Source: a virus (Duplodnaviria > Caudoviricetes). Taken from it: 64,000 bases of DNA. The translations under genes and the position numbers were made by a program. Location: positions 1,162 through 65,161 of the IMG/VR virus record IMGVR_UViG_3300047160_004775; one strand, given 5' to 3'. Within the stretch, counting starts at the first letter, position 1, and each line of letters starts with the position of its first letter. This document shows positions 29,323-53,208 of this stretch, piece by piece. The notes under the pieces are model-generated. The model ran no database searches. It was not told the origin of the DNA and saw nothing but the letters and a program-made list of their open reading frames with translations.

Positions 29323-29572
29323 TGATCTGCCAGGACCCGGCCGGAAGCGAACCGATGGTGTACTGGTCGATCAGGCCCGGCGTCGTAGCGCCGTCGAACG
29401 TCGAATCGTTGATGATGATCTTATTCACGTTCGACGCGGCCGGTGTCCCTACGTCGAAGTTGTGGGTGTTGCCATTGGCGACCGGAGGGAGGGTGACGAG
29501 ACCTGCCATTCCGCGCGTGTCGGAGTCGCTGACGGGCGTCCACGTCTGGTTGGAGAACGCGCGCTTAGACAT
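29300..29572 (-). CDS. chimeric 90-aa ORF (duplicated start fused to a tail gene fragment)
   Basis: MSKRAFSNQTWTPV fused in frame to a 70-aa allele of the 27748 protein; has its own RBS. Confidence 0.7.
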   Translation of the reverse strand: MSKRAFSNQTWTPVSDSDTRGMAGLVTLPPVANGNTHNFDVGTPAASNVNKIIINDSTFDGATTPGLIDQYTIGSLPAGSWQITGMPRRG

Positions 29573-35335: not shown

Positions 35336-36256
35336 TCAGACGCCGGGCGTCCCAAAATACGAGCGCCAGTCGGTCACACCGCAGCTGAAGCGCATGTATT
35401 GCGCGGCCTTGGCGTTCTTCGTGTCGAAGTCATTGTCGGTGTCGAACATCGGCTTGTCCCGCCACAGGAACCGCGCCCCGTAGGGGCAGTTCGTGTGGAT
35501 GAACCAGGCCGTCGCCGACAGCAGGTAGTGGTTGGTCACGATCCCCTTGGGGAACATGCCCGAGGCCTTGATGACGTTGATCGCGTTCGTCGAGGTGTCG
35601 TTCTGGAGCACCGAGTTGACGATCCGCTGGGCGTCGTACCAGAGGGCCGGAGGGATGTTCAGGGACTGCGGGATCAGGGCGATCTTGTTGCCCCGGTAAT
35701 CCTGGGCCTGCATGATCTGGATCCCGAGATCTTCGATCGCGGTTTCCGACAGGTCGGCCGAGCTGGTCAGGACGTTGGACTGGTTCCCCACCATGGTCGG
35801 GTGCGAGTTCGAGATGAGCGCGGCGCCGTCGCCGATGGGATAGGAGGTGTTGAAGGCCTGGTTGAAGACGTTCGCGCCCACGATCTCCTCGGTTTGCCGG
35901 CCGGCGAAGGCCAGGGCCGACGAACGACGCTTCGAGACGGCTTCGTAGAGATCGTCGCGGAGCTCTTCGTAGGTGACGATGTAGCCGCCGGCGTAGGCCA
36001 CGTGGGTGTACCGCGTGACGGAGCCCTGGACTTCGGTGTCGTAGTTCACCGAAGCGCCCTGGTCCTTCTCGCGAAGCACCGAGAAGCCGCTGATTTCCAC
36101 GTCCTCCTCGTAGGCCTTGTCGGAGGTCTCGATGTCGAACCACTCGGGGTATTCCTGAACGTGTTCGGCGTACTGACGCCCCCACCAAGTCTTGATGCCC
36201 GGCCACAGAGCCTTTGGGTGTGCGCCGGTAGTGATAACGCCGCCGAGAGCAGCCAT
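35336..36256 (-). CDS. major capsid protein
   Basis: TSDKAYEEDVEISGF, RYTHVAYAGG, DLYE...ALAFAGRQTEE, TDNDFDTKNAK; follows the scaffold/decoration genes. Confidence 0.9.
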   Translation of the reverse strand: MAALGGVITTGAHPKALWPGIKTWWGRQYAEHVQEYPEWFDIETSDKAYEEDVEISGFSVLREKDQGASVNYDTEVQGSVTRYTHVAYAGGYIVTYEELRDDLYEAVSKRRSSALAFAGRQTEEIVGANVFNQAFNTSYPIGDGAALISNSHPTMVGNQSNVLTSSADLSETAIEDLGIQIMQAQDYRGNKIALIPQSLNIPPALWYDAQRIVNSVLQNDTSTNAINVIKASGMFPKGIVTNHYLLSATAWFIHTNCPYGARFLWRDKPMFDTDNDFDTKNAKAAQYMRFSCGVTDWRSYFGTPGV

Positions 36257-36900: not shown

Positions 36901-37425
36901 TCAGATCCTTGCGAAATCGCCGAAGTGCTCATGCGCGGCTTTAGAGTAGGCCGCATGCGCCTCGTCGGCTGTTGCGTAGTAGCCGAGGCTTTTCAGGTCG
37001 CCATCCACGCGGATCATCGCCCGGTAGGGCTTCGTGCGACGCGGATTGCTGCTGAGAAAGACGCCCTTGACGGCGAGTGCCTTGTTCCTATGCACGGCCC
37101 GGTTCCGCGAGTTTTCCTTGAAAGTCGCGGCGCGCAGGTTGCCCCAACGGTTGTTCGCCTTGTTGAGGTCTTCGTGGTCGATGCGGTCGGTCGGCCACTG
37201 GCCGGCCATGTAGAGCCACGCGAGGCGCGCGGCCTGATAGCGCTTACCGTTGATCTTGATCAGCCAGTAGCCAGTGCTGAGGCTCAGCGAGCCAGCCACG
37301 TCCCCGATCCTGACGCCATTCGGACGCGCCACGCGCCAACGGAACACTACGGTCTCCGGCTCGTAGACCAGGAGACGACGAAGTTCCTCGGCAGTGAGCG
37401 CTGTATGGCGATCTCGGGGCTGCAA
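36901..37425 (-). CDS. HNH-AP2 homing endonuclease
   Basis: ARLAWLYMAGQWP..RIDHEDLNKANNRWGNLR plus AP2-like C-terminus (YRAMIR...LGYY.TA.EAH.AY...HFGDFA). Confidence 0.9.
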   Translation of the reverse strand: MQPRDRHTALTAEELRRLLVYEPETVVFRWRVARPNGVRIGDVAGSLSLSTGYWLIKINGKRYQAARLAWLYMAGQWPTDRIDHEDLNKANNRWGNLRAATFKENSRNRAVHRNKALAVKGVFLSSNPRRTKPYRAMIRVDGDLKSLGYYATADEAHAAYSKAAHEHFGDFARI

Positions 37426-37508: not shown

Positions 37509-38282
37509 TTAGCGCTCGGCGATCCGAAGCGGAGTGCCCGCCTCAGTGGGGTCGTAGAACTTCCCCGCGTCCGCGCGTTTCATCGCGCCCTTTTCGGCAT
37601 CGAAGGCTCGGTTCTTCAGGCCGTCCATGACGGCGTAGGCGGCGTCGTGCTTCGCATTCTGGTCTTCCTTCCAGAACACGAGCGGAAGCTCCATCGCGTA
37701 GGCCCAGAGAGCGTTCCTGTCTCTTCCGGTGCCGACGCAGCGCTTGATGGGTTTGCCGTCTGTGCCTCTGACGAACGCCCACCCAGCAGCCGTTGCTTCC
37801 TGAATACGGCCAGCCACGTTGTTGAACCAGTGCCTGTGATACCCGCGTCGGGTCGGAAGCGCAAGCTTCTGGCTCATCGCGCCGAGCGGCTTGCGGGTCT
37901 CGCGGATCCTGCGGATCTCTTCGGGGCTCGGGCCCTCGCCGTCGTCCTCGGCCGCTGCGGCCTCGGTGATGTCGTGGTCCGCCGACAGATCGACGCCCTC
38001 GAACTCGTCGGCCTCGTCGTGCAGGCCCTCGGTGAAGTCGACGTCGCCGAGTTGGGAGACGCGGGCGATGTGCTCCTCGAGCTCTGCGTCCAGCGCGCCG
38101 TCGTCGATGATGTCGTCGCCCGGATCGTACATCAGCGGCGGCGCGCTGCGGGACGCGGCGCTGTCGGGCACGCGCGGCCCCGTTCCGCGGGACTGGTTCT
38201 GCGGGCCAGCGGCGGCGCGCGGCGCGGCCTTCTTCGCAGCGGGCTTGGCGGCAGCGGGCGCCTTGCGATTACGCGTGACCAT
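37509..38282 (-). CDS. head-module protein
   Basis: Acidic N-terminus; RRGYHRHWFNN..GRI..A..AGWAFV motif. Confidence 0.75.
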   Translation of the reverse strand: MVTRNRKAPAAAKPAAKKAAPRAAAGPQNQSRGTGPRVPDSAASRSAPPLMYDPGDDIIDDGALDAELEEHIARVSQLGDVDFTEGLHDEADEFEGVDLSADHDITEAAAAEDDGEGPSPEEIRRIRETRKPLGAMSQKLALPTRRGYHRHWFNNVAGRIQEATAAGWAFVRGTDGKPIKRCVGTGRDRNALWAYAMELPLVFWKEDQNAKHDAAYAVMDGLKNRAFDAEKGAMKRADAGKFYDPTEAGTPLRIAER

Positions 38283-39307
38283 CAGGGCTTCCTCCGGCGA
38301 CGGAGCTCGAGGGCGTCCGCCTTGGGGTTGGTGTAGATCTCCATGTACTCCGCCGCCGTGAGGCCGGGATCCTGGCCGCGCAGGCGCTGATAGGTGGAGT
38401 GCGCCTCGGCGCGTTCCGCCGGATCCTCGATCACATCGAAGGGCGAGCGCTGGCGAGCTCCGCCAGGCGCGATCGGCGCGCGGGACGGGGCGGCGACAGA
38501 AGCGGCGCGCCTCGGCGCCGGCACGGCAGGGCGGCGTTCGGGCACTGGCGGTTCCTCTTCGAATTCATCATCCATCCCGGGCGCGGGCTGGAAGTCCTGG
38601 GGGTACATCTCGACGAGCCGACGCTTGGCCTCTTCGAGTTGCTCGGCGACATCAGTGAGCTCCCGCTCGGCGATCACCGCGCTGTGGAAGTTGATGATGC
38701 CCTGCTTGAGGTGCGGCCGCTTGGCGTCGAAGAACCAACGGTTGATGGGATCCCGCGTGAAGGCCAGGACCGCCGGGTCGATGCCGCCTTGCGCTGGTGC
38801 GGGGGTTGGGGGGGCGGCTGCGGGCGTCTCGGGCGCCTCCTCCGCAGCGGCCTGGGTGCGCTCTACTTCCATCGCGTCGATCTCGGCGCCGAGTTGGTCG
38901 AACGCCACCATGTCGCCCTGCTCGGCGGCCAGACGCTGCTTGCCCTTGAGTTCGCGCTTGGCGCGTTCGTAGCCCGCCTTCGAGGCGCCGCGGGCCAGTC
39001 GGAGGGCTTCCTTGACGGCCTGCGCCTGCTCGGCGCTGGTGCGGCGCATCGTCTCGAGCTGCTCGCTCATCCGCGTCACCTTGGTGCTCAGGCGGAAGTT
39101 CTGATCGCGCAGCACCGGGAGCTCCTCCATGCCCTTCTTGACGAAGTCCTCGGCGCTCATCTGGTGCCGCGGGTCGCCGCGGAACTCGCCGGGAGGCTTC
39201 CACCCCATCGCGCGGGCCTGGTCCTCGATGCTGATCGGCGGACCCTCGAGGTACTCGTCCGTCGGATCCATCTCGGAACCGATCTCGGAGTCGTGGATCG
39301 CGCTCAT
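38282..39307 (-). CDS. capsid scaffolding protein
   Basis: ARAMGWKP..EFRGD...SAEDFVKKG plus long coiled coil. Confidence 0.8.
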   Translation of the reverse strand: MSAIHDSEIGSEMDPTDEYLEGPPISIEDQARAMGWKPPGEFRGDPRHQMSAEDFVKKGMEELPVLRDQNFRLSTKVTRMSEQLETMRRTSAEQAQAVKEALRLARGASKAGYERAKRELKGKQRLAAEQGDMVAFDQLGAEIDAMEVERTQAAAEEAPETPAAAPPTPAPAQGGIDPAVLAFTRDPINRWFFDAKRPHLKQGIINFHSAVIAERELTDVAEQLEEAKRRLVEMYPQDFQPAPGMDDEFEEEPPVPERRPAVPAPRRAASVAAPSRAPIAPGGARQRSPFDVIEDPAERAEAHSTYQRLRGQDPGLTAAEYMEIYTNPKADALELRRRRKP

Positions 39308-39777
39308 GCGGCGTCTCCCTGCAAGTCGGCGAACTGCTCGTCGTCCGCGTAGCCGAAGTCCATCCGGGCGCCGATCATGTCGCACTCGATGAGGCGGTAG
39401 ACCATGTCGTCACGTCCTCGGCACTGGATGCCGGCGTACTTCTCGATGTAGATTCGATCACCGACCCTGAGGGCTTCGCCGGTCCACGCGCGTCCGTCGC
39501 GGTAGCTTTTGAAGGCGCCGGGCCCGAGGGCGTAGATGCACGCCGTCTCCGAGGCCTCGTTCATCGCGTCGATCTTGGCGTCCGGCAGGATCACCCCGCC
39601 CGCCGTCATGTTGGCCATCATGTCCATGCGGACGAGGATGTTGCGGCCGATGGGCGTGTAGCCGGACGTGTTCACCCCGGTCCAACGCGCCGGGATGAAG
39701 GTCCCCTGCATGTTCTGCAGGAGCCGTTGCGGCAGGCTCGACACTTCAGCGTCGGCCCCGCGGGGAGCTTTGGTCAC
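39304..39777 (-). CDS. GroES/Cpn10-like co-chaperonin
   Basis: PIGRNILVR...TAGGVILPD...ALGPG...VGDRI..EKYAG...YRLI. Confidence 0.85.
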   Translation of the reverse strand: MTKAPRGADAEVSSLPQRLLQNMQGTFIPARWTGVNTSGYTPIGRNILVRMDMMANMTAGGVILPDAKIDAMNEASETACIYALGPGAFKSYRDGRAWTGEALRVGDRIYIEKYAGIQCRGRDDMVYRLIECDMIGARMDFGYADDEQFADLQGDAA

Positions 39778-40100
39778 GTGCCTGGTTCCTCGTTTTCCTC
39801 AACGGCAGGCTCCTCGTGGAGCACGCCGTAGAACCTTTGGATGTCACTCAGACTGATTCCCCGCAACAGCCTTAGCGTTGCGAGCTTGCCGCGGACCACG
39901 TCGATGTTCTGGTCCTCGTGCTCCGCGCCGGGCTTCAGATGGCCATATTCCACGAGGTCGGCGGCGATCTCGCGCCAGTTCTCGTGCTGGTGGGACAGGA
40001 AGTCGAAAAAGGCCTTCGTGATGGGGCTGTGCATCCACTGCGCCCAGGACTCCTGGCCCATCTCTTCGAACAATTGTCTTGGGTCGAAGTCCACGCTCAA
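39774..40100 (-). CDS. hypothetical protein downstream of the portal
   Basis: Overlap-coupled at both ends; W..SPITKAFF motif. Confidence 0.7.
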   Translation of the reverse strand: MSVDFDPRQLFEEMGQESWAQWMHSPITKAFFDFLSHQHENWREIAADLVEYGHLKPGAEHEDQNIDVVRGKLATLRLLRGISLSDIQRFYGVLHEEPAVEENEEPGT

Positions 40101-42532
40101 CCCTCCATTGTCGGTCCGGCCGCGTCCGGCAACCCGCCACCGAGCGCATCAGCGCCCGGTGGTCCACCGGGCGCGGGCTTGGTGACTGCGGGCCCTGGGG
40201 TAGTGACGGGAGCCTGCGGGAACGGTCCTGTGGGCCCTGGCGTCGGCTGCGCGCCCGGTCCGGCGCTCGCGGTTTCCAGCGCGTTGAGCGCCATGTCGTG
40301 GGCGCGGTCCAGGGCGTTCTCGCGGGCCTCGTGCTGCCGGTCCATGTGGTCGCCGATCATGTCGGCCATGCCGGAGCGCCGCTGATGGTCGAGCGCCTGC
40401 GAACGGGTGTCGGCGTTCAGGGACTCGATGCTCAGGCGCAGGAAGTCAAGTTGGGCCTGGATAAAGGCCTCCTCGCCGGCGGTGGCGTTCTTGCGAGCGA
40501 GGGCCATGTTGAGGAAGGCCTGCGTCTGGTCCTTCATCTCCGCAGCCCGCATCTTGCCGAGTTCGGCTTGCTGCATGGCCATCGCGAACTGCGCCTGCTG
40601 GGCGTTCGGCTTGGAAAAGAGGTCGTCGATCCGGTCCATGCCAGCTGCGTCGAAAAGCCGGCGCCGGATCTCCACTTGGTCGATCAACGGGTCGCCGTTG
40701 AACTCCATGAGGATCTGCGCCCGCCCGAGCTTCTGCATGTCGGTGAGCATGGTCGGGTCGGCGATGGGCTCGACGCCGCCGCCCTTCTTGTAGTCGTCGG
40801 GCTCGATCTCCCGGTACTCGTCGCCGATGGTGTAGCCCTCGGCGGCCTGCACGTGGCGGCGGTTCAGGCGATAGAGCTTATCGAGCTCCGACTTCTCCGC
40901 GAGGAACACGCGCTTGTGGATCGCGGTGTAGATCTTCATGCCCTGTTCGATCAGGGCGAGCACGGTGGTGGGCGGTGCGTTGGCGATCGAGGCGTCGCCG
41001 GCCAGGATGTTGCCCGTGGAGGCGAGCTTCTCCGCAGCCTGGAGCAGCGTACCGAGGAGTTGGAACAGGACCGTCGAGGGGCCGGGGAACGGAATCGGGA
41101 ACACCGACGCCCGGATGTCCACGCCCTTGGTCGTTACCCTGGTGTAGCGACCGACCTGGAACAGCGTCTGTCCCGACGGAAGCCCTAGCTGGTCGGAGAC
41201 GAAGCCGCCCCCGGCGTTCTGCAGCGTGGCGGCGTCGAACATCTGGTTGACGGCCGTGTTGACGGCGGCGTTGAGGGGCTTGAGCAGGGTGCCGAAGCCG
41301 ACTGGATAACAGCCGTCGTCCATCGCCGGCAGGAAGCTGTAGAGCGTGTACTTCGGATCGGGCTCGATCCGCAGGATGGTTTCGCCGTCCTCGGAGGCAT
41401 GGACCCCGTCCTCGGCGTAGTTCGCGACAATGCGGACCGTCTTGGCCGACCGGAGGTGCACCGTGACGATGTAGGGCTCGGCGTAGCCATCGCCGTCGAG
41501 GTCCAGGCGGCGGTGTTGCTCGAGGTAGACGTGGGGCGAGTCCTCGTCTCCCTGGTCGGCCGACACCACGCTCTGGTTCCAACCCCAGGTTTCACCTTCT
41601 CCGCCGCCGCCCGGGCCATAGGTCTGCGGCAGGAACTCGTCCGCGCGTTCAGCCTCGACGATCTCATGCGGATACTTGAGGAGCTTCTCCGTGTGCCGCG
41701 GCGCGGCGTTGAACGAAGGCGCATGGTAGTTCCACACGATATTGGCCAGCGAAACGAGTTCGGAGCGGTTGCGGCCCTCCTTGCCGTCGTACCACGTCTT
41801 GCGCACCACCCCGCCGACGATGGGCAACTGGATCAGCAGCTGATCGGTCTGGTCCTGCCACTCCGGCATCTGGTGGAGCAACTGCCAGCTCATGTGCTCG
41901 CCGATGCGGTCGGCGCGCTTCCGCTTCGCGCCTGGCGGGACGAGCCAGTTTGGGATGGGCTGCCCGTCCGGCCCCGGGATCATCGGGAGCGGCCTGCCAT
42001 CGGGCTTGCCGTCCACGGTCGCCGGCTGGCCGTCGTCCGATCCCCAAACGATGCCTTTGACCACCTTGCGGTTCTGGATGATCGCGGGGAACAGGCGGGC
42101 GTTGAACTCGACGGCGCTCTGGGCGATCAGCGGGTAGATGACGTTCGAGGCTTTGGGCCACGGAAACTGCTTCTGCTCCGCGACCTGGGTGGCGAACTTC
42201 ACGGCCTTCTCGGCGCGGTCCCACCAGTCCTTCCGGCTGTTCTCGTCGATCTGAAAGTCCTCGACGATCGTAGCGCCGATCTGGTCGAGGATCTCGCCGT
42301 CAAGGTAGCGGGCGATGTTGGAATCGTCGATCTGCTCAACGAGCACTTCGTAGAGGCTGCCCTTGGGCCGCTTCAGCGCCGGTGAGCGGTCTTCAGGCTC
42401 GACCTCTGGGTCTTCCCCTTCGGGATCGAACTCCTCCTGATGCTCAGGCGCTTCCAGGCCGGTGGCGTTCTCGTAGTCGTCCTCGGGCCGGCTCACCATC
42501 GCGACCCGCGACAGGGAAGACTCGATTGCCAT
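40097..42532 (-). CDS. portal protein (podovirus type)
   Basis: 811 aa; FPWPKASNV.YPL, YPVGFGTLL.P.N.AVN..VNQM.DA, IHKR....EL motifs. Confidence 0.9.
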   Translation of the reverse strand: MAIESSLSRVAMVSRPEDDYENATGLEAPEHQEEFDPEGEDPEVEPEDRSPALKRPKGSLYEVLVEQIDDSNIARYLDGEILDQIGATIVEDFQIDENSRKDWWDRAEKAVKFATQVAEQKQFPWPKASNVIYPLIAQSAVEFNARLFPAIIQNRKVVKGIVWGSDDGQPATVDGKPDGRPLPMIPGPDGQPIPNWLVPPGAKRKRADRIGEHMSWQLLHQMPEWQDQTDQLLIQLPIVGGVVRKTWYDGKEGRNRSELVSLANIVWNYHAPSFNAAPRHTEKLLKYPHEIVEAERADEFLPQTYGPGGGGEGETWGWNQSVVSADQGDEDSPHVYLEQHRRLDLDGDGYAEPYIVTVHLRSAKTVRIVANYAEDGVHASEDGETILRIEPDPKYTLYSFLPAMDDGCYPVGFGTLLKPLNAAVNTAVNQMFDAATLQNAGGGFVSDQLGLPSGQTLFQVGRYTRVTTKGVDIRASVFPIPFPGPSTVLFQLLGTLLQAAEKLASTGNILAGDASIANAPPTTVLALIEQGMKIYTAIHKRVFLAEKSELDKLYRLNRRHVQAAEGYTIGDEYREIEPDDYKKGGGVEPIADPTMLTDMQKLGRAQILMEFNGDPLIDQVEIRRRLFDAAGMDRIDDLFSKPNAQQAQFAMAMQQAELGKMRAAEMKDQTQAFLNMALARKNATAGEEAFIQAQLDFLRLSIESLNADTRSQALDHQRRSGMADMIGDHMDRQHEARENALDRAHDMALNALETASAGPGAQPTPGPTGPFPQAPVTTPGPAVTKPAPGGPPGADALGGGLPDAAGPTMEG

Positions 42533-42669: not shown

Positions 42670-42840
42670 CTACTTCCTGCGCTTGCGCCTCTTCACCACC
42701 GCGTTCGCTTCGCGGATGGCGCGGCCTTCATTCCCTGTCTTAGCCAGCACGCCGTTGGCGACATCGCGCCACTGCCTTCGTGCCTTCGCGCCTTTGGCCT
42801 TTTTGGTTTTCTTGGGGGCATCAGCCGGCGTCCAGGGCAT
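42670..42840 (-). CDS. small basic protein (ChaB-like)
   Basis: MPWTPADA.K.TKKA...RQW..VAN..L...G.EGRAIREANAVV. Confidence 0.65.
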   Translation of the reverse strand: MPWTPADAPKKTKKAKGAKARRQWRDVANGVLAKTGNEGRAIREANAVVKRRKRRK

Positions 42841-42917
42841 TGGGCGCTCCTGCTCCAAGTCGGCCGGGGCGACCCACCCTTGTGAAAACCCCGACCGACC
42901 CGGTTAGCGAAGCGAAG

Positions 42918-43139
42918 CTAGACGATCCGGCGCGCCTTGTGAACCGACTTGATCTTCGAGGTGAAGTAGCCGCCGACGGACTGCGCGCCCTTCATGGCTT
43001 CGACCTTCTCGATGGGCACGTCGCTGTAGGCGTGCACGGCTCCTCCGGGGAACTGGATGTGGAGCTCCCGCTTGTCCGGGTCGTAGGCATAGCCGGTCAT
43101 CGCCGAGGATTTGATGGGGGTGAGCTCGGGGTGCTTCAT
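42918..43139 (-). CDS. KTSC-domain protein
   Basis: SSAMTGYAYDPDKRELHIQF..G.V..Y.DVP......A.SVGGYF. Confidence 0.88.
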   Translation of the reverse strand: MKHPELTPIKSSAMTGYAYDPDKRELHIQFPGGAVHAYSDVPIEKVEAMKGAQSVGGYFTSKIKSVHKARRIV

Positions 43140-43142
43140 GGG

Positions 43143-43418
43143 TCAGTCCTTCCTGGAGCCGTCGGCGATCCCGTGCGTCGCGATGGCGAGGAGCCCGAGC
43201 GCCCGGCTCGATTCCTTGCTGGCGTTCCAGAAGCCGAAGTCGGTCCCGTCGTGCCAACAGACCACCACGTCCTGCAGCACGCAGCGGCCGGCGTCGTGCT
43301 CGCGCAGCATGTGGATCAGCAGATCACGAGGCGACCACTTGTCAGCGGCCTCAGCCTTGAGCGCGCGGCGTTCGCCTGGCGTCAGCGGCTCTTTACTGAA
43401 GTCGTGGTCATCGGCCAT
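43143..43418 (-). CDS. hypothetical protein
   Basis: 91 aa; GGGAGG RBS. Confidence 0.65.
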   Translation of the reverse strand: MADDHDFSKEPLTPGERRALKAEAADKWSPRDLLIHMLREHDAGRCVLQDVVVCWHDGTDFGFWNASKESSRALGLLAIATHGIADGSRKD

Positions 43419-43698
43419 TGAAGATCTCCTCCCAGGGTTTGTCGCCGTGGGCCTCGAGGCGCGCGCATTCCGCATCGAACCACTTCTTCATGCCCGGCCA
43501 GAGCATGTCAGGGTGGATCGACTGGGTGATGACCTTCGTCATGACGATCCCGGATTCGTCGGCGAGCGCGACGGCGGTAAAGTCCTCTCCCCCCGCGACG
43601 TCGACGGCCAGGACCATGGGCGAGCGCGACAGCGTGATCGCCGCAGGCGCGGCGGCGGCGGCGGCCAGCAGCCCCAGGAATCCACGGCGAGTCGTCAT
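43408..43698 (-). CDS. twin-arginine-signal protein with capsid N-arm-like segment
   Basis: TRRGFL plus hydrophobic h-region; VITQSIHPDMLWPGMKKWF matches the MCP N-terminus. Confidence 0.75.
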   Translation of the reverse strand: MTTRRGFLGLLAAAAAAPAAITLSRSPMVLAVDVAGGEDFTAVALADESGIVMTKVITQSIHPDMLWPGMKKWFDAECARLEAHGDKPWEEIFNGR

Positions 43699-44060
43699 GA
43701 GAACCTCCGTCGTCTGTGCGGCAGCCGGCGCGGGCCGTCGCCTTCATGCCCGAACCGCTCGGCGTACCAGGCGCGGAAGGTGCGGATCAGGAAGGCCTCG
43801 TCCTCGTGCTCGATGAGGAGGTCCAGCCAGACCACCGCGTTGATCTGGCGTTCCCATGTGACGATCAGCATCCGGCTGGCGGTCGGCACTTGGTCCAGGG
43901 CCAGGAGATCCGCCCGTTGGCCGCTGGGCTCCATGCGAAGGAGCGCCTCGAGCTGCAAGACGTGCAGATGCCGGCGCGGCTGGTTCTCGGGCGCGTAGTC
44001 GCTGGCCTTGCGCCCGCGCAGGGCTGCGATCCGGGCGATGTCGGCCTCAAGCGCGCTCAT
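43695..44060 (-). CDS. hypothetical protein
   Basis: Overlap-coupled ORF. Confidence 0.6.
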   Translation of the reverse strand: MSALEADIARIAALRGRKASDYAPENQPRRHLHVLQLEALLRMEPSGQRADLLALDQVPTASRMLIVTWERQINAVVWLDLLIEHEDEAFLIRTFRAWYAERFGHEGDGPRRLPHRRRRFS

Positions 44061-44265
44061 CAGCCCATCGGATTTGCATGGCTGGAAAATGCCAGCTGAT
44101 CGCGTTCCAGTTTCCCCATGTGATCCACGCTGTCGCCGGCGTATCATCCGTCGCTATCTGCCGGGCGAGCGCGAGGATTCGCACCTTTCCTTCTTCGTGG
44201 GTGAACCCGACGAAGTCGAAGGTGCGCCCGTCGGCCGTCTCGACGTAATAGCGGGCGGCGCTCAT
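44047..44265 (-). CDS. hypothetical protein
   Basis: ATGA-coupled; 72 aa. Confidence 0.6.
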   Translation of the reverse strand: MSAARYYVETADGRTFDFVGFTHEEGKVRILALARQIATDDTPATAWITWGNWNAISWHFPAMQIRWADERA

Positions 44266-44504
44266 GTGAACTCCGGCCCGACGACGCTGAAGGTCCCCTC
44301 GATCGTGACGGGGCGCACCAGGCGGTAACGCACCGCGCCGCACTCAGGGTCACGCGTGACATGGAGTTCGCACGAAGCCATCGCGTGCTTGTGCTGGTTG
44401 CCGATGACGAGCTCCTTCGTGCCGGTCGCCAGCATCGCCTCGATCAAAGCTCCCAGCCTGATGCGCTCGCGTTCATCGTTCCGGATCTCGTGCTGCGCGG
44501 TCAT
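44262..44504 (-). CDS. hypothetical protein
   Basis: 80 aa; GGGGG RBS. Confidence 0.6.
   Translation of the reverse strand: MTAQHEIRNDERERIRLGALIEAMLATGTKELVIGNQHKHAMASCELHVTRDPECGAVRYRLVRPVTIEGTFSVVGPEFT
44349..44360. repeat. palindrome GTCACGCGTGAC
   Basis: Exact copy inside a CDS. Confidence 0.95.
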
Positions 44505-44555
44505 GTCGCCCCCTGAGACGGCTACGCTAGCGTGAGCCGAGGCGACGGGAAAGCC

Positions 44556-44789
44556 CTACTCCAAAGCTTCTTCGATGCACTTCGCGACCCCCGAGAGCTT
44601 TTCGAGGCTGTCGTACTCGGTGGTGACGACGGCGCCGAGCAAGTGGAGCTCGAGTGAGTACCTGTCGGCTGATTTCCAGGTCTGCAGGGCGACGAACTTC
44701 GCCGGGTCGAAGATCAGGTGCGGTGCGCCGGCCAGTTCGATCACCACGCGCCCGTAGGCGATGCGGCGGCTAACTGTCACGCGTGACAT
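44556..44789 (-). CDS. hypothetical protein
   Basis: 77 aa from MSRVTV. Confidence 0.6.
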   Translation of the reverse strand: MSRVTVSRRIAYGRVVIELAGAPHLIFDPAKFVALQTWKSADRYSLELHLLGAVVTTEYDSLEKLSGVAKCIEEALE

Positions 44790-44991
44790 CGCGTGGTCCA
44801 AGCCCGAGCGCCCAAGCGCGCATGTCGAGCGCGGTGGCGAAGGTCTGCTGTTCGAACACTTCGCCGGATCCACGGCAGGTCGGGCACTCCCTGGCGACCA
44901 TCAGCACCATCGCGAAGTGGCCAGAGCCGTTGCACCAGGGACATGGCACAACGCGCAGGATAGGCTCTTCCAACAGCAGAGGACTGGCCAT
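44770..44991 (-). CDS. DnaJ-type zinc-finger small protein
   Basis: CPWCNGSG...CPTCRGSG. Confidence 0.7.
   Translation of the reverse strand: MASPLLLEEPILRVVPCPWCNGSGHFAMVLMVARECPTCRGSGEVFEQQTFATALDMRAWALGLGPRDVTRDS
44776..44787. repeat. palindrome GTCACGCGTGAC
   Basis: Exact copy overlapping the ATG at 44789. Confidence 0.95.
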
Positions 44992-44992
44992 C

Positions 44993-45241
44993 CTATCGCT
45001 CCCCGTCCTTCTTGGTGGTGGGGGCGTGCAGGACGCAGCCGAAGTCCGGGCCCACGATCATCCCCCAATCCTCGTCGTTCTCGACCAGCACCTCGTTTAG
45101 GGCCAGTTCATTCTGCTCCGCATAGGCTGGCCCATATCCGCGCTCCCATCGGGTGCAGGAGCCGTATGGCGGCCGGCGGTGGGGAGGTGAGCCGTCGCCC
45201 AGACGAAAGTGGCCGCAAGTGCTGCAGGTGGACGCCATCAC
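44993..45241 (-). CDS. small Cys-containing protein
   Basis: CSTCGHF...GSC...FGCVLH; ATGA-coupled. Confidence 0.6.
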   Translation of the reverse strand: MMASTCSTCGHFRLGDGSPPHRRPPYGSCTRWERGYGPAYAEQNELALNEVLVENDEDWGMIVGPDFGCVLHAPTTKKDGER

Positions 45242-45780
45242 CCCGCCTCCCCTTCACCCGTCTTGGCGCGGTAGGAGGCGAGGGCTTGGCGAAGGGCATC
45301 GTCGGCCTTGTGCAGAGCATCCGCTGCCAGCAGTTCGTCCCTGCCAGCGTAAATGAGCAGCTTCATGGCGGGAGGAATTGCAGCACGCGCCTTTTCAGCC
45401 GCCTCAACCAGCCCGGTCACGTCGGGTTGAGGTTGGGCCAGGGCGGCGAGGATACGGTCGATGCGGGCGTTCGTCTCCGCTGCGAGGTCAATCTGCTGTT
45501 CGGTGTGACAGTCTCCCTCGTCTGGACGCGCCTCTCCCAATTGCGTCGCCAGCCACGCCGCATCCTCCCCGCTCAACCCTCCCGCTGGAGAGGGGGTGCG
45601 GCGGTTCCAGAGACGCGCTGCACCTTCTGGCGTTGTATGTGTTGGGCCGCACGCCGCGCAGTCCTCGCACTCAACGAAGCGATGGCTGATGACGTTTTCC
45701 AAGTTGGTCGAATAGGAGAGACTTACATTGTCGCTCTCGCAATGAGGGCACGCCTCCAGCTTTTCGCCTTGGTCAGTCAT
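45238..45780 (-). CDS. Lar-like restriction alleviation domain protein
   Basis: LEACPHCES...FVECEDC.A.GP...AARLWNRR. Confidence 0.75.
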   Translation of the reverse strand: MTDQGEKLEACPHCESDNVSLSYSTNLENVISHRFVECEDCAACGPTHTTPEGAARLWNRRTPSPAGGLSGEDAAWLATQLGEARPDEGDCHTEQQIDLAAETNARIDRILAALAQPQPDVTGLVEAAEKARAAIPPAMKLLIYAGRDELLAADALHKADDALRQALASYRAKTGEGEAG

Positions 45781-46067
45781 TGATCAGTCTCGGAATTCAG
45801 GCGGATATGCCGAGTAATACCCGGCTCCTTCATCCGCTCAGGATGGTTGGCGCGAAACTCGGCGAACTCCTCTATCCGGTCTTGAACGGCCCGCCAGTGG
45901 TGGTCGTCTTTCACCAAGCTCTGGTAGTAGTTCAGCAGAGCTTGGGTATGCCGGTCGCGTGCTCGGAATAGGATCACGGGTTCATCGTCTGGGATCGCCT
46001 CACCGGACACGCGGTTGACAAAGGCCTTGCGCTCTTCGTCCCAGCGGAACTTACGGTCCTCGCTCAC
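45777..46067 (-). CDS. hypothetical protein
   Basis: IPDDEPVILFRARD motif; GTGA-coupled. Confidence 0.7.
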   Translation of the reverse strand: MSEDRKFRWDEERKAFVNRVSGEAIPDDEPVILFRARDRHTQALLNYYQSLVKDDHHWRAVQDRIEEFAEFRANHPERMKEPGITRHIRLNSETDQ

Positions 46068-46702
46068 GGCTTCGTCTCCTGTTGGGGCGGGGCGGGAAGG
46101 GGTTGCCAGTATTTCGGTCGTGCATAAACAGGAAATCTACTTTCCGCGCCACTAGGCACCGCGTTACCTAGGAGGTTGAGCAGTTGCCACGACTGCTCAA
46201 CATGATCGTAATATAGCACTTCCGGTATTTGGTGGAGACGGTCATAAAAACTACCGCCGTCACGCACCCAAAGTAGCCACCCCAATTGCTGCGAGCGCGA
46301 GCCGTGATCATTGTATTGATCAGCGTCGATATTTACTCGTGTACAAAGATACCACCCGCTTTTGCGCGGCAGCTTATGCGCCACACTTACCCAACCGTCA
46401 TTGCGAATTTGGTCTGCGTGGTAAGCATTAACTTGAGTTGGTGGGTGATAATGGGGTTGATCGAGTCCGCAGATTGGGCACTCAAACGTGCCTTGAGGCT
46501 CAGATTGAGCTAGCCCCTCGGCGCCCGCTGGTTTGGGCTTCGGCGCGCCCCCGAAAGCTTTCCGGTAAGCCTCCATGAAGTCGTCAGAGCCGGGCGCTCC
46601 GGGGAGCGGTATCCTTGGCCCCTTGCAGCGCCGGAAGTAGTATCGGACCTGGCCGTGCCGGTCGATGAAGCGGTCAACGTACTTCAAGCGGATCGTGGCC
46701 AT
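46064..46702 (-). CDS. integrase N-terminal arm fused to a DUF551-like domain (no catalytic domain)
   Basis: LKYVDRFIDRHGQVRYYFRR...RIPLPGAPGSDDFMEAY, then WVSV..KLP...WQPLPAPP; no R-H-R-Y residues. Confidence 0.7.
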   Translation of the reverse strand: MATIRLKYVDRFIDRHGQVRYYFRRCKGPRIPLPGAPGSDDFMEAYRKAFGGAPKPKPAGAEGLAQSEPQGTFECPICGLDQPHYHPPTQVNAYHADQIRNDGWVSVAHKLPRKSGWYLCTRVNIDADQYNDHGSRSQQLGWLLWVRDGGSFYDRLHQIPEVLYYDHVEQSWQLLNLLGNAVPSGAESRFPVYARPKYWQPLPAPPQQETKP

Positions 46703-46941
46703 TCCAGGGCTGCGTCCCAATCGCTTTCGCCGGGCGACTCTTGTCCCTGGCCGGCGAGGCTATCGAACGCCGCATCAAGTTGATAGCGGTCCCAGATCAC
46801 GAGGCGGTCAATGCGCTTGGGCTTGGGCATGACGCCACGGCTCACAAGCTCATCGAATTTGGATGGGGACACGCCGACATAGGCCGCCGCCATCTCACGG
46901 CGCAATCCGCGCGGCTCGACCTGGCGACCATGAGCGCTCAC
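46684..46941 (-). CDS. excisionase/AlpA-like HTH protein
   Basis: RGLRREMAAAYVGVSPSKFDELV..G.MPKPKRID..VIWDRYQLDAAF; overlaps the integrase-like start. Confidence 0.8.
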   Translation of the reverse strand: MSAHGRQVEPRGLRREMAAAYVGVSPSKFDELVSRGVMPKPKRIDRLVIWDRYQLDAAFDSLAGQGQESPGESDWDAALEWPRSA

Positions 46942-47342
46942 GGCTTCTCGGGCTCCCCGGTAGTGGGGTTGGCGAGGTCGAGGAGGACGTCGGCGTGACA
47001 TGGCGAGCCGGGCTTGCACCAGCAGGCGAGCGACTTGCCTTGGAGGAACGACGGGCTTGGCGGCGCACCAGGGCACAGGACCGCCTCAAACAGCGGGTGT
47101 CTGACGTGCTGGCCGATCTGATAGCCGAGTTCGCCACGCATCCAGCGACGGTAGCGGTCCACAGCGCCTTCGGCGGTGATCTCCGGGCCGATCTCCACAA
47201 CGTCGCCGCTGTGCAACTTCACGCGGCCAGGACCGACGAACCACGGATTGCCCCAGCCCGTCGCGCGATCCACCTTCACGGTGTTCGGCGGCATCTTCCA
47301 GCCGCGCTTTCGGCTGAGCTGTATCCTGACCGGCCTATCCAC
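46938..47342 (-). CDS. DUF4326-like protein
   Basis: VKVDRATGWGNP...LQGKSLACWC.PGSPCHADVL. Confidence 0.85.
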   Translation of the reverse strand: MDRPVRIQLSRKRGWKMPPNTVKVDRATGWGNPWFVGPGRVKLHSGDVVEIGPEITAEGAVDRYRRWMRGELGYQIGQHVRHPLFEAVLCPGAPPSPSFLQGKSLACWCKPGSPCHADVLLDLANPTTGEPEKP

Positions 47343-47931
47343 GATCTTCCTCCACTGAAGGAGGGGCGGGGAGGAGCGTCTTGCCGGGCTTGTTAGTGGG
47401 GCGCCAGCCGGCGAACTCGCCAGCGATCCCGTGCCACGTCCAGCCGCCGCCATTGTGGTCGATCCACTGGGCCAGCACCACCTCGACCCACCGCAATTTG
47501 TCGTCGCCCTTGGCGTAGCTGTAGTTTTGATGGACGCAGCGAGCCCAGATCGGCGTCCCGTCTCGCGGCGCTTCTGACATGGGCCGCCATCCCCCTTCCT
47601 TACAGACAGCCCGCGTGATTGTGTCTGTATTGGCCGACGTGAGAAGGGCGATGATGGCGAGCTTGGCGTAGTCTTGGCCGGTGAGGATCGCCCAATCGGA
47701 CGCATCGTCCCAAGGCTGACGACGCAGGCCGTCCATGAAGCCGTCGTGCCACGCTTGGGCCAGCGCCAGCGCTTCCTTCAGCATCGGGTCCTCAGGCTTC
47801 CAGCCTTCACGGGCCAAGCGAGCAGCTTCAGCGGCGATTTCCCTAATGACCTGCCGGTCCATCATACGGGCGCCCAGCTTGATCCGAGCGGCCTCGTCAG
47901 CTCGGGCTAGGTCCAGTTCGTCGTCGGTCAT
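47335..47931 (-). CDS. hypothetical protein with DUF551-like C-terminus
   Basis: WRPMSEAPRDGTPI...WRP; GAGGAGG RBS. Confidence 0.7.
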   Translation of the reverse strand: MTDDELDLARADEAARIKLGARMMDRQVIREIAAEAARLAREGWKPEDPMLKEALALAQAWHDGFMDGLRRQPWDDASDWAILTGQDYAKLAIIALLTSANTDTITRAVCKEGGWRPMSEAPRDGTPIWARCVHQNYSYAKGDDKLRWVEVVLAQWIDHNGGGWTWHGIAGEFAGWRPTNKPGKTLLPAPPSVEEDRG

Positions 47932-48572
47932 GGTTTCCTCCTCTTCGAAAACGGCCGGCTCTGCATGGGCCGGTGGCCCTGGTCGAAGCCTCGGGACGGG
48001 ATCTTGCGCCGCGGCTCCTTGCGCTCGGCGCCGACCCGCATGGTGGCCTGGCGCTTCTCCTTGGCGCGCTGGCCTGCTTCTCGGCGCGTCTTCGGCCCGT
48101 GACAGTCGGAGCATCGCAGGCGGAGGTTCGAGGGCCCGAAGTAGGCGCGGCGCTCAACCCAGGGCAAGTGCGTGGTGCGCCAGAGCGGGACGGTGTGCTC
48201 GAGCTCTACGCTCAGGCTGATCTCGACTTCGCACCAAGGGCCCACGCACTCGCCCACGATCGGGCCGCCCTTCGTGAACCAATCCCGCCAGGGATAGGTC
48301 TGGCACCGGCGGTTCATGACGTGCTGATTGCCGCGCACGTGGAGCGGCTGCTCCCTGCAGTCCCAGCACCAGGGCCCGTCGCGATCGAGCACGAAGGCGT
48401 ACTGCACCTCGCGGCGCGAGTGGAGCAGGATCTCAAAGGCGCAGTCGGGTTCGGCGCCGCGGCCATCGTGCTTGGTGCGGTCCTTGCGGCCCTCGGTGAT
48501 CGGGTTCGCGCACCAGCGGCAATGGCGGTCAGGGACAGCCGGAAGGCGGAAGGAGCGAATGTTGGTCGTCAT
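47928..48572 (-). CDS. HNH endonuclease
   Basis: CRWC, CWDC, ELEHTVPLW...NLRLRCSDCHGPKT. Confidence 0.8.
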   Translation of the reverse strand: MTTNIRSFRLPAVPDRHCRWCANPITEGRKDRTKHDGRGAEPDCAFEILLHSRREVQYAFVLDRDGPWCWDCREQPLHVRGNQHVMNRRCQTYPWRDWFTKGGPIVGECVGPWCEVEISLSVELEHTVPLWRTTHLPWVERRAYFGPSNLRLRCSDCHGPKTRREAGQRAKEKRQATMRVGAERKEPRRKIPSRGFDQGHRPMQSRPFSKRRKP

Positions 48573-48589: not shown

Positions 48590-50953
48590 CTAGTAGCCAG
48601 TGTGATCGTCCCGGCTTTCAACTCCACCGTAGTCGGGGCGCTCCCAGAAGTCATCTTCGTTCTGCTGGATGTCGACCAGCGCAGGCGCGAAGTACTCCAC
48701 CATGCCGTATTGAAGGGCGTCGTGAATGTGGCTGTACTCGTTCTTCTCGGGCTTTTCGCTGTAGCGCTCGGGGCCCGCCACCTGGAGCCGCCGGCGGTGA
48801 TAGCCGCCCATGAAGCCCTTGCGGAGCATCCTGCAGCGCGGGTGCAGGATGAAGCTCGGTTCGCCGCCTGGTGCGAGGCGCAGCGGGCGGCGCACCGATT
48901 CCTGGCGCAGCGTGGGCTCTTGTGAGCGCGCGGCCTGGATGTTGATCCCCTTGGCCTGGAGGATGTCGAAGGCGCTGCGCTTGTCGGTCTCGTGGCGGTT
49001 CTCGCCCGCCGGATCGCCCCAATCCTCGATCTGAACCTGTCCCTTGAAGGCCCGGGCACAGTGATCCAGCACCACGTCCCCGAATTCGTCGACGCTCATG
49101 TTGTCGGAGGTGAGCTCGTCGAAAGTCAGCCATTGCCCTGTCGGAAGAATCTGGCTGAAGGCGCAGGCAGGGGTGAGACCGAAATCCCATGAGCGGATCA
49201 CCGGACGTCCCGGCACCGGGTCGGCCTTCCGGCAATGGAACGCGTCGTTGTACTCGGGGTAGACGAGCTTGCCCTCGACGATGAAGCCATACTTCCCGTC
49301 GACGTAGATCTTGTTCCACTCGGCCGCCTTGCCGGTCGAGAGGTTGGTGTAGTAGCGCCGGCCGCCAGGAAGGTTGCTCAGGTTCTCAGCGCCCGCCTCC
49401 AGGCCCCCTGGCTGCTTGAACAGCCGCGCGAAGCCCTTGGGGTGCTTCATCTCCTCGAAGAATTTGTACCACTTCGAGTCCGCATCCGGCGGGTTGGTGT
49501 CCATCCACAGGCCGTACCAGAAGGGCATGACGCAATCGCGCTTGGCGGGGTAGCGCCCCACGCGGCCCTGGAAGGCGTCGATCACCGCCCAGGGCACCTC
49601 GCGGGCCTCGTTGATCCAGCCGCCGGTGAGCTCGAGCGACAGGAGCTTCTTCACGTCGTCGGGCCGGTCCAGGGCCAGGAAGACGAGTTCGATCTCGGTC
49701 TTGTCGAAGGCCTTGATGACGTAGCTGTGCTTGTTCTCGACGTAGCGGCCGAAGTACTGCGGCGGGAACCATTGGAAGATGGTCTTGATCGTGGTGTCGC
49801 GGAGTTCCGGGTAGGTGTTCCGCACGACGCCCCAGCGGGATCTGCGCCAGCCATCGACGCCCACCGGATGGGCGAGCCCGCGGTTCACGATCTCGACGAC
49901 GCAGCCCGACGACTTGCCGCTGTTGCCGGTGATGAAGATCGTGTCCGCGCATCGGGCGACAAAGAACCCCGTCGGCACGATGAAGCAGTACTTCAGGCCG
50001 TCGTAGGCGCCGAAGCGGCTGATCTTGGTGGTATCGACACGCACTTGAGCGCGGTTCTTCGGGTTGTCCGAGGTCCGGATGTTGACCGAATAGCTGTCGC
50101 GCCACTCCTCGTTCTCATATTCCGTCCGGTGGATCGCTGCGCGGCGGCCGGTGGCGTGCGCCGCGTACTGGATGAAATCCGCATCGGCCTTGTGAGTGGT
50201 GAAGTAGCGAACCTCCTCGTGGTCAGCCAGGCCGTCCCAATGGGACATCTCGTCGAGCACGACGCTCAATTCTCGGCGAGAAGCGGTCCACCAGCGTTCG
50301 TCGAAACGTTTGCCTCGGTAGGGCGGATAGAACACGAACAGCGTCTCGTCTGGCCGGCGGGGATAGACGCGCTCGGCGAATTCGATCCCGAGGCGTCGGA
50401 GAAGAGCGCGGCCGCGCTCCTTCTTTCGCTCTTTCCGCAACGTCACCACCGCCTGATTGCCCTGGCGCGTGTAGTGCCCATCCGCGTGCATCATGACGGC
50501 GAAGCGGATCAGGTCGTCGCTCATGCCCAGCCCGTGCCCATCCGGTCCGACGAAGGTGGTGGGAATCGTCCGCTTAGAAGGGTGGCGCGCGATCTCAGCA
50601 GCCGTGCTCACGCTGAAGCGACCGGTCCAGTTGTAGTGGGGCACGCGATGCTCACCTGACAACTGCATGACGAGCGAGCCGCTGTCGAACTCGATGAACT
50701 CGGTGCAGGGGAGCACGATGTGTTTTGTCGGTTCGACGAACTCGATACGTCCGTCCTCGTGCCACTGCGCAACACGGTCGCCAGACTGGTAGTCGCACAT
50801 GCGCTTCCACCCCGCCGGCGTCAGGAACTCGGTGTCGAACGGCAGGCATCCAAAGGGGCCCATCAGCCCGCGGATGAAGCTGTCGTCCTCGCTGAACCGC
50901 TCGATGGTCGGGCAGTCGCGGTAGTCGTAGCGGACGTAGTGCGGTTCGGTCAT
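48590..50953 (-). CDS. terL: terminase large subunit (intein-containing)
   Basis: GPFG|SGKS Walker A, VVRNTYPEL, LSLELTGGWINEARE, WDFGLTPAC, HIHDALQY. Confidence 0.95.
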   Translation of the reverse strand: MTEPHYVRYDYRDCPTIERFSEDDSFIRGLMGPFGCLPFDTEFLTPAGWKRMCDYQSGDRVAQWHEDGRIEFVEPTKHIVLPCTEFIEFDSGSLVMQLSGEHRVPHYNWTGRFSVSTAAEIARHPSKRTIPTTFVGPDGHGLGMSDDLIRFAVMMHADGHYTRQGNQAVVTLRKERKKERGRALLRRLGIEFAERVYPRRPDETLFVFYPPYRGKRFDERWWTASRRELSVVLDEMSHWDGLADHEEVRYFTTHKADADFIQYAAHATGRRAAIHRTEYENEEWRDSYSVNIRTSDNPKNRAQVRVDTTKISRFGAYDGLKYCFIVPTGFFVARCADTIFITGNSGKSSGCVVEIVNRGLAHPVGVDGWRRSRWGVVRNTYPELRDTTIKTIFQWFPPQYFGRYVENKHSYVIKAFDKTEIELVFLALDRPDDVKKLLSLELTGGWINEAREVPWAVIDAFQGRVGRYPAKRDCVMPFWYGLWMDTNPPDADSKWYKFFEEMKHPKGFARLFKQPGGLEAGAENLSNLPGGRRYYTNLSTGKAAEWNKIYVDGKYGFIVEGKLVYPEYNDAFHCRKADPVPGRPVIRSWDFGLTPACAFSQILPTGQWLTFDELTSDNMSVDEFGDVVLDHCARAFKGQVQIEDWGDPAGENRHETDKRSAFDILQAKGINIQAARSQEPTLRQESVRRPLRLAPGGEPSFILHPRCRMLRKGFMGGYHRRRLQVAGPERYSEKPEKNEYSHIHDALQYGMVEYFAPALVDIQQNEDDFWERPDYGGVESRDDHTGY
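49922..50848 (-). mobile_element. 309-aa intein with LAGLIDADG-like endonuclease in the terL Walker A
   Basis: Begins CLPFDTEFLT; ends YCFIVPTGFFVAR...ITGN followed by Ser; internal MMHADG and HWDG blocks. Confidence 0.93.
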
Positions 50954-51345
50954 GAGCGCCGCGCCCAGCGCCGCGCCTTGCGCTTGCCGTTGCGGCTCAG
51001 TGGGGCCCCGGGTTTGGCGTAGATCGACGCGAGATAGATCACCTCGCAGGGGTACGGCCAGCGGTCGCCCTTGAGGTTGTTGCAGCTCTTGTGCGCCAGC
51101 AGGATGTTGGCGTCCGCGCGGCCGCCCTGGACACGGGGGAAGACGTGGTCGCGTGATGGCGCGCCCGAGTTGGAACCGTGGAGCTCCAGCGCGCCGCGCG
51201 CGAAGCGATCATCGCACAGGTAGCACCCATGGTCCTGGCGGTGGAAGATCTGGCTCTTGGACAGATTGACCGCCATTCCGATCATGTCACACGTGACAAT
51301 GCGCCAGGCGTCGAGCGCCCGTTGCGCAGCCGTGTTGAAGGTCAT
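50950..51345 (-). CDS. HNH endonuclease adjacent to terL
   Basis: CYLC...SRDHVFPRVQGG...NILLAHKSCNNLKG. Confidence 0.88.
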   Translation of the reverse strand: MTFNTAAQRALDAWRIVTCDMIGMAVNLSKSQIFHRQDHGCYLCDDRFARGALELHGSNSGAPSRDHVFPRVQGGRADANILLAHKSCNNLKGDRWPYPCEVIYLASIYAKPGAPLSRNGKRKARRWARRS

Positions 51346-52326: not shown

Positions 52327-52547
52327 AGCCGCACCACCGTGTCGTAGAGCGCCCAGGACGCGTCCAGAGCCGCGCGCCATTTGCTCGCGAGCGCTTGGTC
52401 GCCCTTTTCCAGCGCTCGGGCATAGAAGGTCGCCGCGCCCTCGATCTGGGTTCGTGACATGGGGAGATCCGCCTTGATCGGCTCGAGCGCCGCGATGGCG
52501 CGCCGGCGGCGAGTTCGATAGGCGGCTTGGCGCTCTGCGTTCGTCAT
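52323..52547 (-). CDS. hypothetical protein
   Basis: MTNAERQAAYR motif; ATGA-coupled. Confidence 0.7.
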   Translation of the reverse strand: MTNAERQAAYRTRRRRAIAALEPIKADLPMSRTQIEGAATFYARALEKGDQALASKWRAALDASWALYDTVVRL

Positions 52548-53074
52548 CCTGCGCCCCTCTTCGTACCGGATCTGATGACCTGAAACACCACCGGCTGCGT
52601 GGGATCGCCCGCGTGCTCGATACGGTCCTGCCAGGGGAGCGAACCCTTGGCCTGCCCGCGGCGCCGATTGGTGAGCCAGATCTTCGACGCGCCCGGTTCA
52701 GGAGGATAGTGCTCGGTGAAGCGGGCGCGGATGATCTTGCCCTCGTGCTGGAAGATCTTCTCGGCCGAGTGTGAGTAGCCGATCGCGCGCTGATAGAGGC
52801 CGTGGGCGACATCAGCGTCCGCCTCGGTCTTCCCGCGCGCGAGTTCCCGGCCAAAATGCGGGTGCTCGCTCTTCCATCCGTTGAGCGTCGCCTCGTCGAT
52901 GCCGATGACCTCGGCCATCTCGGACTCGGTGCATCCGAGGAGGGCCATCTTGAACACGGCGAAGGGGAGGCCGTCGTGATAGAGGGGCGGACGGCCTGGT
53001 CCTGAGGGACCGCCGGTGCCGGGCGTTTTGGGTCGCAGTAGTCCCGGGCCTGAGGTTTTACGCTTCGTGACCAT
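52544..53074 (-). CDS. terS: terminase small subunit (start could be 53140)
   Basis: GRPPLY...LLGCTESEMAEVIGIDEATLNGWK...ADADVAHGLYQRAIGY...HYPP...KIWLTNR. Confidence 0.88.
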   Translation of the reverse strand: MVTKRKTSGPGLLRPKTPGTGGPSGPGRPPLYHDGLPFAVFKMALLGCTESEMAEVIGIDEATLNGWKSEHPHFGRELARGKTEADADVAHGLYQRAIGYSHSAEKIFQHEGKIIRARFTEHYPPEPGASKIWLTNRRRGQAKGSLPWQDRIEHAGDPTQPVVFQVIRSGTKRGAG

Positions 53075-53208
53075 GTTCCTGCGTGCCTGGTTCCTGGGCG
53101 CGATGGAGCCGTGGTGACATAGTTCGCCGAGATCGTCCACGGCGGAGGCTGTTGATCTTTACAGCTAAGCCGCTCATGGTGGGCGCGCCATGCTAGAGGA
53201 GACGCTCC

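Follow-up and report, generated by a model that had tools for sequence, protein, structure and literature searches.

ORF96, a Small Phage Accessory Gene with a Tat-Type Leader and a Putative Mimic of the Capsid N-Terminal Arm

The Locus and Its Genome Setting

The window, i.e., the whole stretch of DNA that was analyzed, is 64,000 nucleotides long and covers nearly the whole of a 65,161-bp record of an uncultured virus (~99% complete, 62-73% GC). Its packaging and head genes are encoded on the minus strand in the order small terminase, terminase-like gene, small ORFs, portal, two head-module genes, HNH gene, 204-aa gene, and major capsid protein (MCP). The small ORFs constitute an accessory cluster, and one of them, ORF96, is the subject of this report (Table 1). 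Its minus-strand orientation was absent from an earlier, sequence-only reading of the same DNA.

Table 1. Features of the packaging and head region, with the parts of ORF96 and of the MCP that are discussed in the text
Feature	Position	Strand	Basis or remark
Small terminase gene	52544-53140	-	
Terminase-like gene, 787 aa	48590-50953	-	
Accessory cluster of small ORFs, including ORF96, between large terminase and portal, ~5 kb	42670-47910	-	
ORF96, leader-plus-capsid-arm protein, 96 aa	43408-43698	-	ORF translation, coding GC3, ribosome-binding site
Tat-type leader, ORF96 residues 1-24 (MTTRRGFLGLLAAAAAAPAAITLS)	43627-43698	-	TIGR01409; aligns with family RRGFLG..AP
Post-leader module, ORF96 residues 25-41 (RSPMVLAVDVAGGEDF)	43576-43626	-	Matches family xSLMRIKPILLPGEDF stretch
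Capsid N-arm copy, ORF96 residues 53-80	43459-43542	-	BLASTP E 8e-7 vs. own MCP
Portal protein	40097-42532	-	phrog_1216, E 4.9e-19; weak SU10_portal match
Two head-module genes, 257 aa and 367 aa; candidate scaffold proteins, possible arm partners	37509-39385	-	Position only
MCP, 306 aa, HK97 fold	35336-36256	-	PF25209, PHROG major-head families, Foldseek
MCP N-arm, residues 4-31, template of the copy	36164-36247	-	BLASTP alignment; AF2 helix 14-31, pLDDT 75-92

Identification of the MCP is based on a match of the 306-aa ORF to Pfam Phage_capsid_4 (43.3 bits, with a cutoff of 27) and on an AF2 model (pLDDT 85.5) for which Foldseek matches HK97, D3, and encapsulin shells. In this model, the stretch that recurs in ORF96 corresponds to the N-arm, where residues 14-31 form a helix. 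The N-arm of HK97-fold shells is an interior element that meets scaffold or cargo. A solved structure for the window's capsid family was sought by sequence, and none was found. The two head-module genes between portal and MCP have no family match, and their position is kept in relatives.

Several features mark ORF96 as a coding sequence. Its GC content by codon position is 0.65/0.51/0.86, like that of the window's known genes, and the pattern holds in all three parts of ORF96 and is lacking in the alternative frames that overlap it. A GGAGG ribosome site lies 5 nt upstream of the ATG, the start codon and the stop of the upstream ORF are merged as ATGA, and the end of ORF96 shares 11 nt with the start of the downstream ORF. 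When the flanks were searched for a promoter or terminator belonging to ORF96, no site above chance separated it from its neighbors. Judged by its coding-type GC3, its GGAGG, and its start and stop overlaps with adjacent genes, ORF96 is a real gene. The protein has no Pfam match, and its AF2 model (five sequences) is unstructured, with a pLDDT of 44.7.

A Copy of the Capsid N-Terminal Arm

In an all-against-all BLASTP comparison that took in the window's GC3-plausible ORFs, ORF96 and the MCP were one of the few non-overlapping ORF pairs to match (E 5e-5 to 2e-4). The core of the match is between VITQSIHPDMLWPGMKKWF, residues 56-74 of ORF96 (43477-43533), and VITTGAHPKALWPGIKTWW, residues 7-25 of the MCP (36182-36238), which are identical at 11 of 19 positions without gaps, exactly as counted in the sequence-only reading. 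Over a slightly longer span (ORF96 residues 56-79 and MCP residues 7-30), 12 of 24 residues are identical, with a pairwise BLASTP E-value of 8e-7. The similarity is significant when set against shuffled sequences: its ungapped BLOSUM62 score is 71, compared with 26.5 on average and at most 56 after shuffling, so that none of 20,000 shuffles reaches the observed value, and a Gumbel fit gives p ~2e-7.

The arm had also been proposed to be under selection as protein, and the codons bear this out. Of the 12 identical residues within ORF96 residues 53-80, five are specified by different codons, and two of the other seven are Trp, for which no alternative codon exists; copy and template are identical at 41/84 nucleotides (49%). 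The low nucleotide identity and the codon differences thus place the similarity at the protein level, and the arm copy is, on these comparisons, an old duplication kept at the level of protein, not a DNA repeat.

What has been copied is limited to the arm. ORF96 residues 53-80 carry the signature I..HP.xLWPGxKxW of the HK97-fold MCP N-arm (Phage_capsid_4, PF25209), and 8 of the 11 columns that are invariant or near-invariant in a 28-member MCP alignment are retained. Three positions that are invariant in MCPs (A16, G26, and Y29) differ in ORF96. The alignment covers only 28 residues, the P-domain, A-domain, and E-loop are absent, and ORF96 does not have the complete capsid fold (spine helix, P- and A-domains). 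When ORF96 was compared with GenBank phages by tblastn, the only matches were N-termini of related capsid proteins, to query residues 53-93.

The Leader and Its Protein Family

The N-terminus of ORF96, which reads MTTRRGFLGLLAAAAAAPAA in translation, was described as Tat-like in the sequence-only reading, and the label is justified by the TIGR01409 standard: residues 2-22 match TAT_signal_seq at 20.0 bits, above the curated cutoff of 16.7. A twin-arginine motif of the S/T-R-R-x-F-L-K type is present as T-T-R-R-G-F-L-G (residues 2-9), the h-region has a mean Kyte-Doolittle hydropathy of 2.07, and residues 22-24 (T-L-S) could fit the -3/-1 rule of a signal-peptidase site. The second Tat model, PF10518, has no match in ORF96 and weaker, sub-cutoff matches in relatives.

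A word-based search with ORF96 recovered ORF96 alone. An exhaustive search produced three small orthologs (P0004, P0007, and P0010) that are 34-41% identical to ORF96 and share its layout, namely an RR leader, a variable linker, a ..LWPG.K.WW.. motif, and a short tail. A fourth small ortholog of this layout, P0013, came from a viral contig. Another relative, the 93-aa P0008 (loci L006-L008), has its first 47 residues in common with ORF96 at 53% identity, after which comes a stretch with a weak match to the Phage_portal model (E 1.4e-5, under the Pfam cutoff). This switch behind a common front suggests that tails have been exchanged behind a shared leader and linker.

A profile search with the orthologs opened onto a large family of proteins of 80-190 aa, in which the leader is strongly conserved and the tails are very diverse. 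The leader consensus is MNRRGFLGxxLAAAAAPAIVRAxSLM, and a profile built on ORF96 plus its orthologs recovers these canonical family leaders. Viral contigs contributed 44 further family loci. The ORF96 leader is divergent by comparison, with RRGFLG present, AP at +13/+14, Met at +24 rather than the +23 of the family, and VRA absent. Some family tails resemble pieces of tailspike or portal proteins, and others resemble nothing known. In the favored reading, each member pairs a conserved twin-arginine-type leader with a short copy of some virion-protein segment, the most frequent source being the N-terminal arm of the MCP of the same phage.

The leader has the hallmarks of known Tat signal peptides (TIGR01409, PF10518). 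In ORF96 these are T-R-R-G-F-L followed by an Ala-rich hydrophobic stretch of 15-16 residues, to which the family consensus adds a basic residue and small residues before the likely cleavage site (VRA). Two differences stand out, however. The passenger of ORF96 is a fragment of ~70 residues without a predicted fold, whereas Tat passengers are folded and often cofactor-bearing enzymes, and the family leader is conserved well past the Tat consensus. Among 39 different DNA versions, taken from loci with 45-69% GC, synonymous change in the leader is saturated (pS 0.70, versus a pN of 0.26), and the leader is therefore old and under purifying selection. Its invariant residues are two R, F, A, P, and, beyond the predicted cleavage site, a Met. 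Tat recognition alone is not known to need this much. Conservation of the AP in the hydrophobic core and of the Met suggests a constraint other than Tat recognition.

An internal start at the invariant Met, which would yield a leaderless isoform as in dual-start holins, was considered and rejected, as SD-like motifs lie upstream of it in 2 of 40 genes, compared with 23 of 40 for the annotated start. The middle segment of ORF96, VLAVDVAGGEDFTAVA, has structural look-alikes at low confidence only. It was also considered as a possible copy of a terminase nuclease motif, and the segment proved to be unmatched in the phage's own terminase and in the rest of the genome. The equivalent stretch of P0008 falls within the weak Phage_portal match.

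Longer forms, or leaders fused to full-length virion proteins, were sought and none were found; a single 244-aa match was unrelated (weak evidence). Searches of 50,697 GenBank phage records by tblastn with ORF96 and with a second family member (P0047) returned no ortholog, a result in which the low-complexity filter may hide short leaders. A full-text literature search gave no description of leader-plus-virion-piece genes, and this family of small phage accessory proteins is apparently undescribed.

Correspondence of Tails and Capsid Proteins

In all six phages in which both genes could be read, the tail of the small protein copies the N-terminus of the phage's own MCP, even though three unrelated capsid-protein families are involved (Table 2).

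Table 2. Tails of leader proteins compared with the MCP of the same phage
Phage	MCP	Tail vs. own MCP
This window	Phage_capsid_4	E 8e-7
G001 (carries P0013)	55% identical to the window's MCP	58% identity over MCP residues 8-31, E 5e-6
L089	P22_CoatProtein	E 5e-7
L094	P22_CoatProtein	E 1e-6
L095	P22_CoatProtein	E 3e-4
L106	PHROG 9953 major head protein (phrog_9953)	E 6e-7

The correspondence does not extend to finer scale. Within the Phage_capsid_4 family, the ORF96 arm ranks its own MCP 23rd of 29 and is closer to an MCP subclade with the motif 'HPDALWPGVK.WF', while P0013 ranks its own MCP eighth of 29. The small proteins retain a core of aLWPG(V/I)KxxW, mostly with Tyr, and the H-P pair that is invariant in capsid proteins is relaxed. 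The copy therefore follows the capsid-protein family, not the phage's own lineage within Phage_capsid_4. The co-variation with the cognate MCP envisaged in the sequence-only reading is accordingly found between capsid families (6/6 phages) and breaks down within one, and a strictly self-directed role is not indicated, since the arm does not track its own MCP.

A variation on this theme is seen in L095, where the leader protein (L095:10001-10303) matches its own P22-type coat protein (L095:16186-17403) twice, once at N-arm residues 3-23 and again internally at residues 196-262 (E 4e-5). It resembles a spliced, miniature coat protein.

Distribution of the Gene

The closest relative of the window's phage, L082, has an MCP, terminase, and portal that are 71%, 55%, and 54% identical, respectively. 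Its terminase-portal gap is only 0.8 kb and contains none of the ORFs of the window's accessory cluster, ORF96 included. A leader-type ORF was also sought in 79 related capsid loci (~1 Mb in total) and found in none (0/79). ORF96 is an optional gene inside a dispensable terminase-portal insertion. Elsewhere, leader genes are often located between the large terminase and portal, and they occur in other modules as well. A search for a conserved partner gene beside them revealed none, with terminase and portal neighbors alone recurring.

Possible Roles

By its sequence features, ORF96 is a translated-looking, optional small gene that joins a Tat-type leader to a selected mimic of the capsid N-arm helix. 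We lean, at somewhat better than even confidence, toward regarding it as a divergent member of the leader-plus-virion-piece family in which the arm copy would be a mimic and the leader would provide delivery. Most of that weight falls on identity and architecture, and less on mechanism.

The best guess as to mechanism is an accessory bait or mimic that would engage the arm's usual partner and be directed by its leader to the membrane or to the Tat machinery. The arm copy would occupy a site on whatever usually binds the N-arm helix, be it scaffold, a neighboring capsid subunit, or an internal protein, and the shared leader would supply a common second function, namely bringing the protein to the inner membrane or the Tat machinery. 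Leader and arm together might then remove the bound partner from circulation, or the piece might be exported. A membrane-targeted capsid-arm mimic had been put forward in the sequence-only reading; its architectural half stands, since a Tat-type leader joined to a selected N-arm copy recurs in orthologs and, with other capsid families, in unrelated phages, while the targeting, like the suggested procapsid tethering, decoy action on capsid sensors, and poisoning of related phages, would be the more tentative half. Against the mechanism, a protein with normal Tat topology would have its arm copy in the periplasm, a compartment from which scaffold and capsid proteins are absent, and the predicted model of ORF96 is unstructured. 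Moreover, a partner of the capsid arm is not a general target of the family, given that some tails are tailspike-like, portal-like, or unrecognizable.

From its rarity, patchy distribution, and variable tails, we infer that ORF96 fits better as a conflict gene (phage versus phage, or phage versus host sensor) than as a core assembly factor. Small proteins of this general kind are known. For example, CpmB of SaPI is a satellite protein that competes for capsid or scaffold sites. Like CpmB, ORF96 is small, optional, and encoded by a mobile element, and its putative aim is likewise at virion building blocks. The same can be said of Tab, a virion-assembly blocking protein of the Pseudomonas prophage JBD26 (PMC10884400), and of the Tai systems of virion-assembly interference (PMC11364771). 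In contrast to ORF96, none of the three has an export-type leader or copies part of a virion protein of its own element, and none is related to it in sequence.

A broader version of the delivery idea, to which we give a rather low probability, is that many tailed phages use one conserved Tat-type leader as a handle for short copies that mimic pieces of their own virions (capsid arm, portal, or tailspike), with whatever binds these copies being pulled to the membrane or Tat machinery, or expelled. Such a binder could be an assembly protein of a competitor phage or a host sensor of virion proteins, and if this is true, the family would represent a modular bait-and-dispose weapon of a previously undescribed kind. 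Should the proteins act as they look, the modular principle would itself be new, with one leader as the activity and swappable virion-piece mimics as the target. It would bear on competition during co-infection, on how phages handle host sensors of structural proteins, and on exploitation of the Tat pathway during infection, and would offer a practical rule by which to annotate thousands of small phage genes now called 'hypothetical'. As a divergent family member from a single lineage, ORF96 contributes two facts, namely that the arm copy follows capsid family rather than own lineage and that the gene lies in a dispensable terminase-portal insertion.

Among the alternatives, an immunity decoy is unlikely but fares best. 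Here, a host sensor would recognize a conserved capsid N-terminal motif, and ORF96 would soak up or remove that sensor. The copy keeps family-invariant residues (LWPG, K, and W) and not lineage-specific ones, as expected for a sensor of a conserved epitope, and the gene is optional and fast-evolving. Capsid-sensing defenses also exist, one being CapRel SJ46, as summarized in PMC13728456. On the other hand, there is no known sensor for the window's capsid family, no defense gene is linked to the leader family, and a cytoplasmic decoy would have no need of an export leader.

Two further roles are each improbable. In the first, the protein would be an assembly helper, held by its leader in the inner membrane, where the arm copy would dock portal, scaffold, or capsid to start procapsid assembly. 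The T4 proteins gp40 and gp20 provide a precedent for membrane-associated prohead initiation, and gp40 is needed for assembly. The likeness lies in the idea of a membrane-bound factor, encoded next to a portal gene, that engages head proteins; ORF96 is indeed in the head module by the portal, and leader genes are often directly upstream of portal. There is no homology with the T4 proteins, however, and unlike gp40 the gene is dispensable in relatives: its absence from L082 and the 79 related capsid loci means that it is not needed for assembly. In addition, a proline-containing hydrophobic stretch of 15-16 residues is probably short for a stable anchor, and an N-in signal would place the arm outside the cytoplasm.

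The second, of comparably slim probability, is periplasmic superinfection exclusion, by which an exported piece would mimic the docking site of the inner capsid and bind ejected internal proteins of incoming related phages. It would explain why an export leader is combined with pieces of inner-facing virion parts, and the ORF96 arm is more like the capsid proteins of other subclades than its own. The idea is nonetheless purely speculative, with no internal protein known to bind the window's capsid arm, and the tailspike-like tails of the family do not fit it. Finally, a recombination scar or chance ORF, i.e., a functionless leftover from partial duplication of the 5′ end of the capsid gene, might be imagined in a genome with three HNH endonuclease genes and other partial duplications, where ORF96 has no close ortholog, but it is highly improbable in view of the coding GC3, ribosome site, and translational coupling, and of a layout kept in distant orthologs and across capsid families with synonymous change saturated.

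Other Features of the Window

The three HNH-type endonuclease genes are scattered in the packaging and head module (36901-37425, 47928-48572, and 50950-51345, all on the minus strand). Of these, the copy located upstream of the 204-aa gene is also present in L082.

The terminase-like protein contains an apparent intein within its Walker A loop. It reads ..GPFG|CLPFDTEFLTPAGW ... FITGN|SGKSSG.., and joining of the flanks gives GPFGSGKS. The putative intein includes an endonuclease-like stretch, LIRFAVMMHADG, and the same layout is found in L082.

A giant minus-strand ORF (10033-21804) encodes 3,923 aa with ResIII, helicase-C, and methyltransferase domains. We take it to resemble the large, virion-borne anti-restriction 'polyvalent' proteins, such as DarB of P1.

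Directly after the portal gene is a 108-aa ORF (39774-40100, minus strand) with no Pfam match. At this position, related phages (MW202785 and the P0013 contig) have a GroES/Cpn10-like gene.

Lastly, a 90-aa ORF (29300-29572, minus strand) is 83% identical over 76 residues to the inside of a 340-aa tail-region ORF (27748-28770, minus strand), and its first 22 residues match the start of a neighboring 167-aa ORF. Judging from these matches, it is a chimeric ORF that arose by recent partial duplication.
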